NCBI GenBank assembly: GCA_964486505.1
Contig: CAZAMC010000003.1
Coordinates: 139,120-203,119, forward strand
Length of the DNA stretch: 64,000 nucleotides
Reading direction: 5' to 3'
Origin: an uncultured Gammaproteobacteria bacterium
Lineage (GTDB): Bacteria > Patescibacteriota > Patescibacteriia > PEXW01
Shown here one piece after another: positions 11,419 to 16,719 of the stretch (position 1 is its first letter; each line of letters starts with the position of its first letter). The notes beneath the pieces were generated by a model. The model was not told where the DNA came from, did no database searches, and worked only from the letters and a program-made list of their open reading frames with translations. The translations under genes and the position numbers were made by a program.

Positions 11419-12051
11419 TTACTTCACCAACCCCGTGACCGCTGTTGCCTCAATGCTCACCCAATGCACATCACGGCGCTTCCCTTGATCCGCAAACATC
11501 CGGGATGATTGAATACTAAAGCCGGCATGCCGAAGCAGGCTTTCCATCTCCTTCTTCGTAAAGTACGTAAAGAATCGGGGGAGTTTAGACAATGTATCGG
11601 TCACCCACCCAGAACCTCTACCAACCTTCACCCGCACATGCAGGCAGCCACCGGGGACAAGAACCTTCTGCAAACGTCGGAGAACGGGGGGAACATCTTG
11701 CCGCTGCAAATGCAGGAGCACGGCGTTCGCCCAAACCGCATCAAAGGACTTCGGCGGAAAGGCCAACTTCCGGACATCCATGAAAATGAATCGCCCTTTC
11801 GGTACTCGCTTCTTTGCAAGCGCCAGGAGGGTTGTACTCGTATCAATACCGGTGACGCGTAGCCCTTCCTTCACAAAATACTGGGCATCACGTCCACCGG
11901 CACAGCCCACTTCCAAAACCCGTGATCCTTTGGCCAACGTCTTTGCAAACGCCTTCCGCTCCTCTGGGACAAGCGGTTCAATGGAGCGCACGTATGCACG
12001 CCCCAACGTGTTGTAGGTCTTCCGCGTCTCCTCGTAAACCGAGGCAGGCAT
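11419..12051 (-). CDS. Class I SAM-dependent methyltransferase
   Basis: Motif I VLEVGCAGGRD, and a Methyltransf_11/25-like layout. Its start overlaps the gdh stop (TAATG). Confidence 0.75.
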   Translation of the reverse strand: MPASVYEETRKTYNTLGRAYVRSIEPLVPEERKAFAKTLAKGSRVLEVGCAGGRDAQYFVKEGLRVTGIDTSTTLLALAKKRVPKGRFIFMDVRKLAFPPKSFDAVWANAVLLHLQRQDVPPVLRRLQKVLVPGGCLHVRVKVGRGSGWVTDTLSKLPRFFTYFTKKEMESLLRHAGFSIQSSRMFADQGKRRDVHWVSIEATAVTGLVK

Positions 12052-13325
12052 TACTTCACTAGCCCCCGCGCCTTCATGGCGTCTTCCACACGCTTCAAGG
12101 CCACAATGTACGCACCAGTGCGCAGGTCAACCTTATGCTTCTCGGCGGCGGCCCACACGTCGTTGAAGCTCGTGGTCATCACCTGCCGTAACTTCGTGAA
12201 CACTTCTTCCTTGGTCCAGTACGCCCCGCCAAGATTCTGCGCCCACTCGAAGTAGCTCACGGTCACACCGCCGGCGTTAGCCAAAATGTCTGGCACTACT
12301 GGAATCTTGCGGCGGAAAAGTTTCTCATCAGCATCCGGCGTGAGCGGGCCGTTGGCCATCTCCACAATTGCCTTCGCCTTAATCTTCCCGACGTTCTTCC
12401 CAGTAATGACGTTCTCCAGCGCGGCAGGAATGAGCACGTCAACCTTCAGCTGCAAGAGTTGATCGTTGGTAATCTGCTTGTAGTTCTCGCAGTCACACAC
12501 CGAGCCAATGCAGTAACACCCGTCAATCATCCCTTTCTCCTTCTTGGCGTGCATCACGTTTCGCGGGTCCATGCCCTTGCCGCGCACATCCAAGATCCCG
12601 CCTTTGGAATCGGAGAGGGCGATAATCTTGTAGCCCAAATCGTGCAGCTTCTCCGCCACGTAGTAGCCCACGTTACCAAAACCTTGCACCGCAATGGTCG
12701 CGCCCTTCTTGAGTTTGAGTTTCTTCGCCAATTCTTCAAAGACCATAGCGCCCCCAAACCCCGTAGCTTCGGTGCGGCCTTGCGAACCGCCAATGGCCAA
12801 GGGTTTGCCGGTAAACACCGCCGGTTCCCACGCGCCCGTCAGCCGTGCATACTCGTCCACCATCCAGCCCATAATCTGCGGTGTGGTGTACACGTCCGGC
12901 GCTGGTACATCGGTGCGCGGTCCCAGGTACTTCACGAACGCCCGTACCCACGCACGGGAGAGCGCTTCAATTTCCCGGGCCGACAACTTTTTCACGTCAA
13001 CGATAATGCCGCCCTTGCCGCCACCCATGGGAATGCCAGCCACGCCCGTCTTCATGGTCATCCAGAAGGCCAGTGCCTTCACTTCGTTGAGGTCAACCTT
13101 GGGATAGTAGCGAATGCCGCCCTTGAACGGTCCGCGCGCGTCGTTGTACTGGACGCGAAAGGCGGTAAAGCTCTTCGTCGAGCCATCATCCATGGTAATG
13201 GTAAGGCTCGCTTCCATAATGCGCTGCGGTTTCTGCAACGATTCAAGAAAGCGTGGATCAAGCTGGGCAACCGCGGCAGCTTTCTTTAGCTGGCGCATTG
13301 CGTTGGCAAAAGGATTCTCGGCCAT
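12051..13325 (-). CDS. gdhA: Glutamate dehydrogenase (Glu/Leu/Phe/Val dehydrogenase family)
   Basis: 424 aa with GPFKGGIRYYP, GIPMGGGKGGIIVD, GFGNVGYY and GGVTVSYFEW, the classic GDH signatures. Confidence 0.9.
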   Translation of the reverse strand: MAENPFANAMRQLKKAAAVAQLDPRFLESLQKPQRIMEASLTITMDDGSTKSFTAFRVQYNDARGPFKGGIRYYPKVDLNEVKALAFWMTMKTGVAGIPMGGGKGGIIVDVKKLSAREIEALSRAWVRAFVKYLGPRTDVPAPDVYTTPQIMGWMVDEYARLTGAWEPAVFTGKPLAIGGSQGRTEATGFGGAMVFEELAKKLKLKKGATIAVQGFGNVGYYVAEKLHDLGYKIIALSDSKGGILDVRGKGMDPRNVMHAKKEKGMIDGCYCIGSVCDCENYKQITNDQLLQLKVDVLIPAALENVITGKNVGKIKAKAIVEMANGPLTPDADEKLFRRKIPVVPDILANAGGVTVSYFEWAQNLGGAYWTKEEVFTKLRQVMTTSFNDVWAAAEKHKVDLRTGAYIVALKRVEDAMKARGLVK

Positions 13326-13358
13326 ATGGTCGTAGGTAGTTGAGGAGGAATAGGATGA

Positions 13359-14327
13359 CTAACGTCTGGACGTGCCCCAGTCGATGCGCGCCCCCCGCTT
13401 GCCCGTAAGTTTGAGCAGGTACTGGTCAGCTTCCAAGGCGGCTTTGGCACCTTCGCCAGCCGAAATAACCACTTGCTTAAACGTAATTGTGGTAATGTCG
13501 CCCGCTGCGAATATGCCCGGTTTTGAGGTTTCGCAGTTGGGGCCAATTTTAATTTGCCCTCGGGGGTCGGTTTCCACAATACCCTTCACCCAGCCGGCTT
13601 TGGCCATGTACCCAATTTCCACAAAGACCACATCGGCAGGGATGTCTTGCAACTCCTGCGTCTTCTTGTTGAGAATCCGAATGCCGGTCACCGAGGTGTC
13701 ACCCAAAACTTCTTTCGTCTCTGCGCTATCGATGACCGAAATGTTCGAATGCTCGGTCATACGCTGGATGACAACCGTTTCCGCGGTGAGGTGTTCGTTC
13801 ACGTTGACGAGCTGCACCGTACTCGCCAGGTGTGCCAATGTAATCGCCGCTTGCACGGCCGATGAGCCGCCACCAATAACGAGAACATTCTTATCTTTGT
13901 AGTAGTGCGCTTCGCAAATTGCACAGTACAGCAAGCCCTTCCCGCTCAGCCGCTCTTCACCCGGTACGTTGAGGTGGCGATGGGAAAGACCAAAGGCGAG
14001 GATGACAACCGGTGCATCATACGACGTCGTTGCTGTGCGCACTGTGTACGTGCCGTCAGCCTTGGGTTCGAGTGCCGTTACCGTGTCAAAGGAGAACAAG
14101 GCACCGTACTTCTCGGCTTGGGCTTTGAACTTCTTCATTAAGTCCAGCCCATCAATGAACTCAATGCCTGGGTAATTCTCAATATCCGGCGTTGTGGCGG
14201 CCTGCCCGCCAACGTCCTGAGAAATGATCATAGTCTTGTACCCTCGACGGGCCGTAAACATGCCAGCCGTTAACCCGGCTGCGCCACCCCCGACGACGAT
14301 GACCTCAAACCCAGTAGGCATTTCCAT
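13359..14327 (-). CDS. Thioredoxin-reductase-like flavoprotein lacking the HRR NADPH motif (atypical CAIC redox motif)
   Basis: FAD motif VIVVGGGAAG and redox motif YCAICEAHYY (canonical is CATCDGFF); GGGSSAVQAA is present, but the HRRD/R NADPH-phosphate motif is replaced by VNVNE. Sits immediately downstream of trxA. Confidence 0.75.
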   Translation of the reverse strand: MEMPTGFEVIVVGGGAAGLTAGMFTARRGYKTMIISQDVGGQAATTPDIENYPGIEFIDGLDLMKKFKAQAEKYGALFSFDTVTALEPKADGTYTVRTATTSYDAPVVILAFGLSHRHLNVPGEERLSGKGLLYCAICEAHYYKDKNVLVIGGGSSAVQAAITLAHLASTVQLVNVNEHLTAETVVIQRMTEHSNISVIDSAETKEVLGDTSVTGIRILNKKTQELQDIPADVVFVEIGYMAKAGWVKGIVETDPRGQIKIGPNCETSKPGIFAAGDITTITFKQVVISAGEGAKAALEADQYLLKLTGKRGARIDWGTSRR

Positions 14328-14336
14328 GGCTCTAGC

Positions 14337-14660
14337 TTACAACGTTTTCTTCAGTTCCTCCATGATGGCTTGCTTCGTCTGTAATCCCGCAACCCGCCAC
14401 ACTGGCTTCCCGCCCTTGAAAATCGCCAAAGTCGGGATGCTCATGATTGCGTGGGCTTGGGCAGTGACCGGATTTTCATCTACATCAAGCTTGCAGACCT
14501 TGGCCTTATCGCCAATCTCTTTTGCAATCTCTTCCACAATTGGGCCCTGCACTTTGCACGGGCCACACCAGGTTGCCCAAAAATCTACAAGGACCGGCTT
14601 GGTGGGTTCATCAACTACCTCTTTTTGGAAGTTCTGGTCATTGAGGATCACTTCGGACAT
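14337..14660 (-). CDS. trxA: Thioredoxin
   Basis: 107 aa with the WCGPC active site (DFWATWCGPCK). Confidence 0.9.
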   Translation of the reverse strand: MSEVILNDQNFQKEVVDEPTKPVLVDFWATWCGPCKVQGPIVEEIAKEIGDKAKVCKLDVDENPVTAQAHAIMSIPTLAIFKGGKPVWRVAGLQTKQAIMEELKKTL

Positions 14661-14705
14661 ACGGGCGCGTGGGGTTAAGGAAGGGAAGGTGAGTATAGGA
14701 ATTGG

Positions 14706-15047
14706 CTACGTACCCGACAATGGTCTTTTCATGGGCAAATAGGTACGGGACCAAGAAGCCATGGCGTGCAGGACCTTCTTGAAGGCTCGCCCGCTGGGTG
14801 TCAAGCTGTATTCTACCCGGGGCGGGGCTTCGCGGAAGGTTTTCCGGCTTATCATGCCGCAGGCCTCCAGCTCGCGGAGGCGCTTGGTAAGGGTACGGCT
14901 GCTCGTCTGCCCTACGTCGGCCATGAGCTCAGAAAAACGACGTGACTTTTTCTCGGCTAAGCGCTGGAGGATAACGAACGCTTCACGATCATTTACGTAC
15001 CCGCATAACCGGTCAACTGGACATGAGCCTGATTTTAATGCTTTCAT
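14706..15047 (-). CDS. HxlR-family winged-helix transcriptional regulator
   Basis: CPVDRLCG...REAFVIL..L....RFSEL......SRTL...LRELEACGMISRK..REAPPRVEYSLTPSG matches the HxlR pattern. Confidence 0.75.
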   Translation of the reverse strand: MKALKSGSCPVDRLCGYVNDREAFVILQRLAEKKSRRFSELMADVGQTSSRTLTKRLRELEACGMISRKTFREAPPRVEYSLTPSGRAFKKVLHAMASWSRTYLPMKRPLSGT

Positions 15048-15160
15048 AAGTAAAGTATTACCTACGCGAAGTTTGTTGTCAAATGGCTGCTTCGTTGTAG
15101 TACTCTATAGGCAGCAACACCTGCTTAGATTCCTACCTTACCTGTGAGAGGAGGTGCGCT

Positions 15161-15892
15161 ATGAAACGAAAATCTATAAGTCTGTCGGTACTCTCGCTTC
15201 TTGCGATGCTCTTCATTGCTCTACCGCAAGGTAGCTTTGCTGCATCCATAGATTCTGACCAGGATGATGTTAGCAACGCTCGTGATCCATTACCCTACGA
15301 CCACGACAACGATGGCATCGTTGATAGTCGTGATACGGATGATGATGACGATGGCATCCGTGATGCACTGGAGGCACTTACGGTACGTCTCGACCACGAT
15401 AACGATGGCATTAAAGACGTTACTGACACGGACGACGACAACGACGGCGACAAAGACAAGAGTGAGCGCCGAAAGCAGTTTGACCATGACAACGATGGTA
15501 CACGAGACCTACTCGACAGCGATGACGACAACGATGGGACTCGTGACACCAGTGAACGTACGCTCACACGTCGGTATGACCATGACAACGACGGCCTCCG
15601 TGACGATCGCGATGTTGACGATGATGAAGATGGGTTAGAAGACGTAGATGATCTCTACGACTTTGACCATGACAACGACGCAGTGCGTGATGATCGCGAT
15701 ACTGACGACGATGAAGATGGAATCGAAGATTCTGAAGACTCACATGACTGGGACCATGACAATGATGGGACAGTTGATGACGAAGACTCAGATGATGATT
15801 CCGACGGCATTAGTGATACAGAGGAGGAAGACGGAGAAGAGTGGGACTATGATAACGATGGCACAGCTGACGACGAGGAAACCTCTTCCTAA
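15161..15892 (+). CDS. Secreted highly acidic repeat protein (seven DxDNDGxxD calcium-loop-like / thrombospondin-type-3-like repeats)
   Basis: RBS GAGGAGG; signal peptide MKRKSISLSVLSLLAMLFIALPQGSFAAS; then DHDNDG(I/T/L)xD...D(T/S)DDD(N/E)DG repeated 7 times, with about 45% D/E content. The coding DNA here is visibly more AT-rich than its flanks. Confidence 0.7.
   Translation: MKRKSISLSVLSLLAMLFIALPQGSFAASIDSDQDDVSNARDPLPYDHDNDGIVDSRDTDDDDDGIRDALEALTVRLDHDNDGIKDVTDTDDDNDGDKDKSERRKQFDHDNDGTRDLLDSDDDNDGTRDTSERTLTRRYDHDNDGLRDDRDVDDDEDGLEDVDDLYDFDHDNDAVRDDRDTDDDEDGIEDSEDSHDWDHDNDGTVDDEDSDDDSDGISDTEEEDGEEWDYDNDGTADDEETSS
15290..15870 (+). repeat. In-frame tandem DNA repeats (~75-90 nt units) encoding the DHDNDG...DDDxDG modules
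   Basis: Recurring gaccatgacaacgatgg...gatgacgatggcat units visible directly in the sequence. Confidence 0.55.
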
Positions 15893-15906
15893 GGAAATAA
15901 ACAATT

Positions 15907-15933
15907 GGCAGCGCAAAGCTGCCTTTTGTTTTT
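15907..15933 (+). terminator. Rho-independent terminator
   Basis: GGCAGCGCAAAGCTGCC hairpin followed by TTTTGTTTTT. Confidence 0.55.
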
Positions 15934-16016: not shown

Positions 16017-16048
16017 CAAAAAACAGGACCATAGTGCGTCCTGTATTT
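16017..16048 (-). terminator. Terminator ending the minus-strand tRNA operon
   Basis: CAGGAC...GTCCTG hairpin flanked by A and T tracts, immediately 3' of tRNA-Ala(GGC). Confidence 0.5.
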
Positions 16049-16124
16049 TGGTGGACCTCAGGGGACTCGAACCCCTTACCTCTTCCATGCCATGGAAGCG
16101 CTCTACCAGATGAGCTAGAGGCCC
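16049..16124 (-). tRNA. tRNA-Ala (anticodon GGC)
   Basis: Reverse complement is GGGCCTCTAGCTCATCTGGTAGAGCGCTTCCATGGCATGGAAG...TTCGAGTCCCCTGAGGTCCACCA: cloverleaf, G3:U70 Ala identity pair, anticodon loop AT-GGC-AT, encoded CCA. Confidence 0.9.
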
Positions 16125-16150
16125 ATATTTTGCCTAACACTAGCACTTAT

Positions 16151-16178
16151 TTTCAAAATGTTCCACGTGGAACATTCT
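16151..16178. promoter_or_regulatory. Conserved element with perfect 14-bp palindrome GTTCCACGTGGAAC (copy 1), upstream of tRNA-Ala(GGC)
   Basis: ttttcaaaatGTTCCACGTGGAACattc; 27 of 28 nt identical to copy 2. Confidence 0.4.
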
Positions 16179-16285
16179 CAATGCCGGGAACCACAACTTC
16201 AGCTAGGCATAGACTTTCGGTGCACGGAGCGCACGAGTCGCAATCACTTAGGGGCTCTTACTACCTAACAAAGAAACATTCTTCT

Positions 16286-16361
16286 TGGTGGACCAAAGGG
16301 GATTCGAACCCCTGACCTCTGCAATGCGAATGCAGCGCTCTACCAGCTGAGCTATTGGCCC
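16286..16361 (-). tRNA. tRNA-Ala (anticodon CGC)
   Basis: Reverse complement is GGGCCAATAGCTCAGCTGGTAGAGCGCTGCATTCGCATTGCAG...GGTTCGAATCCCCTTTGGTCCACCA: G3:U70, anticodon CGC. Confidence 0.9.
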
Positions 16362-16376
16362 ATGGATACTAGTGAT

Positions 16377-16405
16377 TTTCAAATTGTTCCACGTGGAACA
16401 TTCCT
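16377..16405. promoter_or_regulatory. Conserved palindromic element GTTCCACGTGGAAC (copy 2), upstream of tRNA-Ala(CGC)
   Basis: ttttcaaattGTTCCACGTGGAACattcc. Confidence 0.4.
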
Positions 16406-16630
16406 TTTCATTTTTGTTTCTCAACTGTGCCCCTAACGCAAATCCTACGAGGGGAGTACACATCTGTGTGTCTAAGTGACGGATTCTTTGCCGTACAACG
16501 CGAAGGCGATCTGCCCATAACTATTCGCCCCACACCTCCCTTTGAGGGTATTAAGACACTCGCTATTTTAAGGATGACAAGTCATTACTTTTAGATGGCC
16601 CGCCATGAACCCGTGCATAGCGAGCAGTTC

Positions 16631-16705
16631 ATGGTGCCCCCGGAGGGAATTGAACCCCCATCTCTCCCTTAGGACGGGATAGCTCTATCCTTTGAGCTAC
16701 AGGGG
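16631..16705 (-). tRNA. tRNA-Arg (anticodon CCT)
   Basis: Reverse complement is GCCCCTGTAGCTCAAAGGATAGAGCTATCCCGTCCTAAGGGAG...GGGGGTTCAATTCCCTCCGGGGGCACCA: 75 nt, U33-CCT-A37. Confidence 0.85.
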
Positions 16706-16719
16706 CTAATTCTCTAGTT

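Follow-up and report, generated by a model that had tools for sequence, protein, structure and literature searches.

A predicted Sec-exported, cysteine-free array of putative thrombospondin type 3-like calcium loops in an uncultured Patescibacteria bacterium

Introduction

What kind of protein consists of a predicted signal peptide followed by little other than aspartate-rich loops, and what might an uncultured bacterium use it for? The question is raised by a gene, here called the acidic repeat gene, in a 64,000-nucleotide stretch of contig CAZAMC010000003.1 (assembly GCA_964486505.1, positions 139,120 to 203,119), the whole of which we refer to as the window. An earlier note on this DNA, made from its letters alone, had described the product as a secreted, extremely acidic protein built of seven units with EF-hand-like or thrombospondin type 3-like loops in an architecture that its author did not recognise.

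We conclude that the acidic repeat gene is a genuine, monocistronic gene of an uncultured Patescibacteria (Candidate Phyla Radiation) bacterium and that it probably, with a likelihood that we put at about 0.6, encodes a Sec-exported, disulfide-free array of thrombospondin type 3-like calcium loops. The acidic protein does not represent a new kind of protein; it belongs, as a member yet to be characterised, to a repeat class that is very common.

Repeat architecture and predicted export

The features of the coding region are listed below; amino acid (aa) positions refer to the precursor, and the loops and unit cores were read from the sequence.

15161-15892, + strand: coding sequence (CDS) for the acidic repeat protein (243 aa and a stop codon), from the open reading frame (ORF) list and its translation
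15161-15241, + strand: predicted Sec signal peptide, aa 1-27, MKRKSISLSVLSLLAMLFIALPQGSFA; cleavage after SFA, read by eye
15251-15286, + strand: degenerate N-terminal loop, aa 31-42, DSDQDDVSNARD
15299-15364, + strand: unit 1 core, aa 47-68, DHDNDGIVDSRDTDDDDDGIRD
15392-15457, + strand: unit 2 core, aa 78-99, DHDNDGIKDVTDTDDDNDGDKD
15482-15547, + strand: unit 3 core, aa 108-129, DHDNDGTRDLLDSDDDNDGTRD; the unit closest to thrombospondin-2
15578-15643, + strand: unit 4 core, aa 140-161, DHDNDGLRDDRDVDDDEDGLED; forms the most similar pair with unit 5
15665-15730, + strand: unit 5 core, aa 169-190, DHDNDAVRDDRDTDDDEDGIED; Ala instead of Gly in the first loop
15752-15817, + strand: unit 6 core, aa 198-219, DHDNDGTVDDEDSDDDSDGISD
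15845-15871, + strand: terminal half unit DYDNDGTAD, aa 229-237; the protein ends 6 aa further on

The repeated element is a core of 22 aa, DHDNDGxxDxxDxDDDxDGxxD, which contains two Dx[DN]xDG loops. The spacer between these loops is always 2 residues, and it is the linker after each core that varies (7-10 aa), its last residue being a Leu, Phe, Tyr or Trp directly before the next DHDNDG. The description given in the earlier note was thus correct as to the gene and its loop repeats, while its spacer of three to eight residues within the unit and its count of seven full units have to be revised: the protein comprises six full units, starting at aa 47, 78, 108, 140, 169 and 198, together with the terminal half unit and the degenerate N-terminal loop. 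In orthologs the latter reads DSDQDGVSNxRD, with Gly at the sixth position, and two of the orthologs described below (L004 and L003) run approximately one unit beyond the point at which the protein encoded in the window ends in a half unit.

The loop pattern far exceeds what Asp-richness alone would produce, since exact D.D.DG..D loops occur 12 times in the mature sequence, compared with 0.24 ± 0.49 (maximum 4) in 20,000 composition-preserving shuffles of it. Measured against the definition of the Dx[DN]xDG class, the protein has 12 exact motifs, each with Asp at position 9, and one additional motif with Ala in place of Gly. Across 54 units taken from the window and from homologs, Asp 1, 3, 12, 14, 15, 16 and 18 and Asn 4 are invariant, conservation is 90% or higher for His 2 and Asp 5, 9 and 22, and Gly is frequent at positions 6 and 19.

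The N-terminus consists of a positively charged n-region (MKRK), a hydrophobic core some 15 aa long and the sequence SFA/AS, where the slash marks the predicted cut; an A-x-A/A cleavage pattern is also kept in the orthologs, and aa 8-19 form a helix in the AlphaFold2 (AF2) model. A cleavable Sec-type signal peptide is therefore predicted and, with it, export of the acidic protein, which supports the extracellular location proposed in the earlier note. The predicted mature protein of 216 aa contains 81 Asp (37.5%), 16 Glu and no Cys, and has a calculated isoelectric point (pI) of 3.3-3.7 with three sets of pKa values and a net charge of approximately -77 at pH 7; the earlier note had estimated roughly 215 aa and a pI of about 3.5. 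The pI of 4.05 returned by Biopython is the floor of its search routine and not a real estimate. Outside the predicted signal peptide and the repeats there is no further sequence, and the protein has no Pfam domains and no recognisable binding domain.

Similarity to thrombospondin type 3 repeats

When single units were scanned, the best family was Pfam TSP_3 (PF02412), at 11.0-11.4 bits, and the ortholog L004 scored 14.3 bits. The Pfam comparisons suggested in the earlier note thus placed TSP_3 at the top, albeit below threshold, while EF-hand families gave no match at E ≤ 10 and Excalibur (PF05901) attained 10.2 bits over 10 residues, short of its threshold of 22. For the bacterial family TSP3_bac (PF18884), a fragment of the window protein scored 6.6 bits and did not reach the threshold of 25, which some homologs did pass (P0002, 28.9 bits; P0122, 40.9 bits).

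Comparison with sequences from the PDB led to the same family. A phmmer search with the whole protein returned thrombospondin-2 and then thrombospondin-1 as top matches (E 0.066-0.15), and a profile of the 54 units, termed A3, matched thrombospondin-2 with an E value of 0.0023 and thrombospondin-1 with one of 0.0056. In these profile alignments 27 aa pair without a gap, and all Asp residues, the His, the Asn and the two Gly are in register. The remaining PDB matches of A3, to lanmodulin and an EF-hand protein, had E values of about 0.08 and covered one loop each.

AF2 gave a mean predicted local distance difference test score (pLDDT) of 65 with an alignment of 35 sequences, and with 116 sequences a pLDDT of 75.6, reaching 84-89 over units 2-5, and a predicted template modelling score (pTM) of 0.58. 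Both models are almost devoid of regular secondary structure. In a Foldseek comparison of the better model with the PDB, the only matches with E < 0.1 were to thrombospondin-2 (2.5e-4 and 4.8e-4), COMP (3.7e-3) and thrombospondin-1 (0.059). Unit profile, Pfam ranking and Foldseek therefore all favour the thrombospondin-type-3-like alternative of the earlier note over its EF-hand-like one, for which neither a family match nor a helix-loop-helix was found, the AF2 models having no helices flanking the loops. Motif, profile and local structure support a match between the window unit and one particular two-loop stretch within thrombospondin type 3 repeats.

Outside the thrombospondin family, the same Foldseek search returned a single PDB match, a marginal one (E 1.7 over 78 columns), to 9n2d_D, a subunit of the Flavobacterium johnsoniae BAM complex determined by cryo-electron microscopy, which may represent bacterial TSP3-type loops in a solved structure.

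The resemblance to the type 3 repeats of the thrombospondins and COMP (PF02412; PDB 1UX6, 1YO8, 2RHP and 3FBY) extends to the same two-loop DxDxDGxxDxxDxDDDNDGxxD with identical spacing, and even to a His in the loop, which reads DHDKDG and DHDRDG in thrombospondin-1 and -2. In the AF2 models the window protein is, like the thrombospondin repeats, irregular, and its predicted export would give it an extracellular location as well. However, the thrombospondin repeats wrap around EGF and L-lectin flanks, while the window protein, which is bacterial, stand-alone and only 216 aa long, has no EGF-like or C-terminal lectin-like domains; its linkers are unrelated to those of thrombospondin and lack the CPxxxNxxQ segment; and the position of the thrombospondin Cys (DAC-D) is a variable one in units of the window type. 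The bacterial TSP3-type proteins (PF18884, e.g., P0081) likewise carry an Asp-rich Dx[DN]xDG double loop, are secreted or surface proteins and are in some cases very large, but have Thr or Asp at loop position 2, where the window protein has His, and most of these relatives carry other domains. EF-hand proteins, lanmodulin and Excalibur have the Dx[DN]xDG loop chemistry in common with the acidic protein, although each match spans just 10-13 aa or so and the flanking helices are absent from the window protein.

Orthologs, linkers and unit number

The identical protein, with the same neighbours, was called on two independent Logan assemblies, and an exact-sequence look-up in a collection of 15 billion proteins yielded no match for the acidic protein or for two neighbours. 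Orthologs in Patescibacteria metagenome-assembled genomes (MAGs) are 59-66% identical to it, the best species-representative matches being L003 (a Candidatus Parcubacteria MAG, 66%) and L004 (a Patescibacteria group MAG, 61-62%). Relatives of the acidic protein originate from groundwater and subsurface MAGs.

In the window, a block encoding glutamate dehydrogenase (GDH), thioredoxin reductase (TrxB), thioredoxin (Trx) and an HxlR-family regulator (12051-15047, - strand) is divergent to the acidic repeat gene, and the same GDH-TrxB-Trx-HxlR arrangement is found in L003 (2818-5788) and L004 (1423-5930). L004 is the closest genome seen, with identities to the window of 91% for GDH, 86% for HxlR, 77% for TrxB and 76% for Trx. 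Yet for the acidic protein, in which invariant Asp accounts for one residue in three, the identity between the two is just 62%. Since the acidic protein diverges faster than its neighbours while its ligand positions are invariant or highly conserved, selection appears to act on those positions.

The linkers correspond unit by unit between orthologs (ALEALTVRL and AAELLKLRL; KSERRKQF and TKERKKQF; EEEDGEEW and DEDNGEEW), a pattern that speaks against continuing homogenisation of the array. Counts of full units run from 4 to 7 among the relatives that the earlier note had proposed to look for: 6 in the window protein, 7 each in L003, L004 and L083, and 4 in P0001. The last of these and the protein of L083 (125-1159) are 99.2% identical apart from an in-frame indel of 88 aa, equal to three units, which is flanked by identical DHDNDGLGD segments and is either a real repeat-number polymorphism or a collapse in short-read assembly. 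All relatives keep the acidic repeats, whose absence from them would have spoken against the earlier description.

Two Kerfeldbacteria MAGs, L008 and L011, encode repeat-only proteins that have more units and lie in unrelated gene contexts. These homologs (L008, 956-1846; L011, 5794-6855) have the C-terminal tail sequence DANAL(S/N)R(F)IR in common; the window protein lacks this tail, which could be a sorting or interaction motif.

Distribution of the unit and its fusion to other domains

A word-indexed protein search with the acidic protein returned 184 matches, many of them Patescibacteria DHDNDG arrays fused to another domain. Among the 120 homologs listed, the fusion partner was a cupredoxin (PF00127/PF13473) in about 17, one of which is named 'Blue copper protein', while DUF5666 (PF18914), GDPD phosphodiesterase (P0004) and Fn3 were found as further partners; five of the 120 are repeat-only proteins like that of the window. 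The cupredoxin, DUF5666 and GDPD proteins of Patescibacteria (e.g., P0002, P0007, P0016 and P0004) have units of the same form, with 40-55% identity over the repeats, belong to the same phylum-level group as the window protein and also have an N-terminal export signal. They differ in that the fusions carry a catalytic or redox domain, whereas the window protein and its orthologs L003, L004, L083, L008 and L011 are made up solely of the repeat array.

An exhaustive search of 1.84 billion representatives identified 3,209 proteins at E ≤ 1e-3, of which 914 had E ≤ 1e-10. Heading the list are very large proteins, thousands of residues long, in which two-loop stretches recur many times and Thr or Asp replaces the His at position 2, as exemplified by LDTDNDGTPNATDTDDDGDGILD in P0129 and P0122. 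The DHDNDG form was present in 98 of the 120 homologs from the first search, but in only 3 of 149 new library-wide representatives (P0121-P0269, mostly very large). With the two-loop unit in 3,209 cluster representatives and stand-alone homologs in several Patescibacteria MAGs, the architecture, which the author of the earlier note did not recognise, is not unusual; the two-loop repeat class is already known, abundant and named in public annotation (P0081, 'thrombospondin type 3 repeat-containing protein').

Marine group II archaea (Poseidoniales) frequently have the His variant as well: dozens of their genomes (L009-L082, many loci; P0061 and P0109) encode membrane-anchored proteins with DHDNDGxxDxxDxDDDNDGxxD, His included. 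In Patescibacteria, an export signal, several DHDNDG units and a cupredoxin domain are combined in P0002, P0003, P0007, P0008, P0010, P0029, P0101 and others, and in these predicted proteins the acidic array resembles a stalk running from the membrane to the redox domain. Membrane proteins of the claudin/PMP22 family (PF00822; P0021, P0031, P0043, P0082 and P0117), presumably eukaryotic, also surfaced as homologs of the window protein; they have long DDDDNDG arrays in a loop.

Proposed mechanism and alternative explanations

In Dx[DN]xDG motifs, Ca2+ is bound in near-identical geometry across 16 structural contexts, the ligands being side chains 1, 3 and 5 and the carbonyl of residue 7, with an extra acidic ligand that is always downstream of the motif; the sites of thrombospondin are binuclear (Rigden et al. 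2011, PMC3123361). The invariant and near-invariant residues of our units coincide with these ligand positions, and include in addition Asp 9, 12 and 22.

Calcium binding, its stoichiometry, calcium-dependent folding and the biological role of the acidic protein are what we infer, in the following form. Cleavage of the signal peptide would release a 216-aa polyanion (about -77) that could not fold by itself without counter-ions. The two loops of each unit would then coordinate Ca2+ through Asp 1, 3 and 5, carbonyl 7 and the downstream Asp 9 and 12, so that the expected load of the 13 usable loops would be about 13 Ca2+ for mononuclear sites, or about 26 for binuclear ones of the thrombospondin kind. 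Calcium loading would condense the protein to an irregular, metal-cored chain without regular secondary structure, and the loaded, extracellular protein would be part of the Patescibacteria envelope or matrix, with a calcium-dependent structural or adhesive function or one of holding cations. Because the module is also fused to cupredoxin, DUF5666 or GDPD domains in related proteins, its own contribution may be a segment that is associated with the envelope and stiffened by calcium. Most likely, then, the acidic protein is a calcium-folded polyanionic protein of the envelope or the extracellular space, with low certainty as regards its role. It is conceivable, though in our view improbable, that the disulfide-free DHDNDG variant constitutes a distinct module of Patescibacteria and marine group II archaea, an envelope polyanion whose His residues tune a pH- or metal-sensitive loading, which stores or hands over cations and serves as a stalk for enzymes such as cupredoxins, the stand-alone proteins being free stalks.

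Several points weigh against reading the protein as an array of thrombospondin type 3-like calcium loops. The whole protein matches nothing in Pfam or NCBIfam even at E ≤ 10, probably because of the correction for composition bias, and neither the single units nor L004 reach the TSP_3 gathering threshold of 25 bits. Its similarity scores rest on a strongly biased composition. The Foldseek matches to the thrombospondin family have template modelling (TM) scores of 0.13-0.14 and root-mean-square deviations of 12-18 Å, so that the loops are locally similar only and the overall path differs. Thrombospondin repeats are held by disulfides, which the Cys-free mature protein cannot form. Convergent evolution readily produces the Dx[DN]xDG motif (Rigden et al., PMC3123361), and we therefore claim that the protein works like thrombospondin and not that the two share common descent. 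A literature search on bacterial and Patescibacteria TSP3 proteins found no study of, or experiment on, a close homolog. The genomic context of the acidic repeat gene, finally, offers no functional clue: the GDH-TrxB-Trx-HxlR synteny is absent from L083 (which has no HxlR neighbour), L008 and L011, and its restriction to L003 and L004 marks it as lineage-specific, for which reason we rejected it as evidence of functional coupling.

Might the protein instead be a generic disordered polyanion, comparable in function to teichoic acids, that acts by charge alone, without discrete calcium sites, as a cation-exchange, hydration or anti-adhesion layer or as an entropic spacer? An Asp content of 37.5%, a net charge of about -77, the rapid divergence of the non-Asp positions, the lack of regular secondary structure in both AF2 models and the pLDDT of 65 in the first of them are all in keeping with such a role. 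Charge alone leaves the strict register of the units unexplained, however, and the invariant Asn 4, near-invariant His 2, frequent Gly 6 and 19 and fixed two-residue spacer point to a defined loop geometry. AF2 confidence also rises to 84-89 over units 2-5 with the deeper alignment, and we regard this explanation as unlikely. The conserved His raises the question of whether another metal (Cu, Zn, Mn, Fe or lanthanides) is bound or buffered, possibly in the service of extracytoplasmic metalloproteins of the cupredoxin type. His 2 is at least 90% conserved over the 54 units, the DHDNDG form is concentrated in the first-search homologs (98/120, against 3/149 library-wide), about 17 of the 120 listed homologs have cupredoxin domains, and lanmodulin and an EF-hand protein follow thrombospondin in the PDB search at E values of about 0.08. 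Yet the thrombospondin-1 and -2 repeats that match best have the same His, in DHDKDG and DHDRDG, and bind calcium; residue 2 of a Dx[DN]xDG site does not serve as a ligand (PMC3123361); the His variant occurs equally in DUF5666 and GDPD fusions and in archaeal proteins and so does not track cupredoxin; and the lanmodulin match spans a single 13-aa loop. We accordingly give little credence to the binding or buffering of a metal other than calcium.

A more specific task for a calcium-binding protein would be to control mineral nucleation, by favouring or suppressing carbonate or phosphate scale on the cell, or to serve as a calcium-dependent adhesin toward a host cell. Patescibacteria are episymbionts, and it is from this that the idea of a host adhesin derives. 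A secreted, repeat-only, anchor-free architecture would suit either task, as would the groundwater and subsurface origin of the relatives, and fast evolution outside the ligand positions together with a range of 4 to 7 full units is often seen in surface proteins. Direct evidence supports neither task, though; the protein has no recognisable binding domain, genes for adhesion, pili or mineralisation are not adjacent, and the lack of a cell-attachment signal is awkward for an adhesin, so that we consider both roles doubtful. That the ORF might be a chance product of a GAY-rich simple repeat and no gene at all was suggested by the ORFs of 50-128 aa that run over the region in other frames and on the opposite strand; these are by-products to be expected of GAY repeat DNA. 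The strong ribosome-binding site, signal peptide and terminator, the orthologs conserved in synteny, the unit-by-unit match of the linkers and the thousands of homologs leave a chance ORF with a negligible probability, and the pattern of conservation refutes it.

Gene signals, neighbouring genes and DNA composition

The acidic repeat gene is set between the following elements.

14706-15047, - strand: HxlR-family regulator gene, upstream of and divergent to the acidic repeat gene
15146-15154, + strand: ribosome-binding site, GAGAGGAGG, read in the sequence
15907-15923, + strand: GC-rich hairpin resembling an intrinsic terminator, GGCAGCGCAAAGCTGCC, followed by TTTTGTTTTT up to 15933
16049-16706, - strand: three tRNA genes (tRNA-Ala/Ala/Arg), downstream of and convergent with the acidic repeat gene

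The ribosome-binding site GAGGAGG (15148-15154) and the terminator to which the earlier note had drawn attention are both seen in the flanks, the GGAGG core lying 6 nt upstream of the ATG. Between the acidic repeat gene and the tRNA cluster there are two hairpins (15907-15923 and 16023-16044), bordered by T-runs at one end and by A-runs at the opposite end, which in sequence look like terminators working in both directions.

On the upstream side, AAGTAAAGTATTAC (15051-15064) adjoins the HxlR start codon, contains GTAA-N4-TTAC and is partly kept in the intergenic region of L003 as GGTAAAGTATTGTAC; the divergent promoters of HxlR and the acidic repeat gene may use it as an operator. A search of the region between these two genes for an operator or inverted repeat revealed no inverted repeat longer than this, and conservation is weak. 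The HxlR protein has Cys residues near its N-terminus (SCPVDRLC), in a pattern like that of thiol-sensing regulators of the HxlR family, which suggests a redox-controlled trx operon. No genes for adhesion, pili or mineralisation were found beside the acidic repeat gene, and a six-frame scan of the window detected no other D.D.DG..[DEN] motif, and hence no paralog of the acidic protein there.

Repetition at the DNA level, which the earlier note had reported, is present but modest: Tandem Repeats Finder (TRF) detects a single period of 87 nt (units 4-5; 2.1 copies, 77% identity), and the unit cores are 56-82% identical in nucleotide sequence, with units 4 and 5 at the top (82%). Similarly, the GC content of the CDS (0.497) is indeed below that of the window (0.563); the tRNA region downstream has a GC content that is just as low. 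Second codon positions have a GC content (GC2) of 0.317, one third of the codons are GAY, and the low GC of the CDS follows from these Asp codons, so that 'AT-rich' describes only an effect of amino acid composition. Foreign origin as a source of the low GC was rejected, as the choice of Asp codons (GAC share 0.53) lies inside the range of most neighbouring genes.

Significance

The significance of the acidic protein is modest, in that it opens no new class of system and resolves no standing question. To the class of thrombospondin type 3-like calcium loops it contributes a compact example that has no cysteines and consists of repeats only. A length of 216 aa could make it a tractable model of the folding of loop arrays around calcium, a process relevant to the mutations in COMP type 3 repeats in pseudoachondroplasia. 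For the organisms themselves, the analysis indicates that uncultured Patescibacteria and marine group II archaea widely use this module on secreted proteins, which in Patescibacteria include blue-copper proteins.

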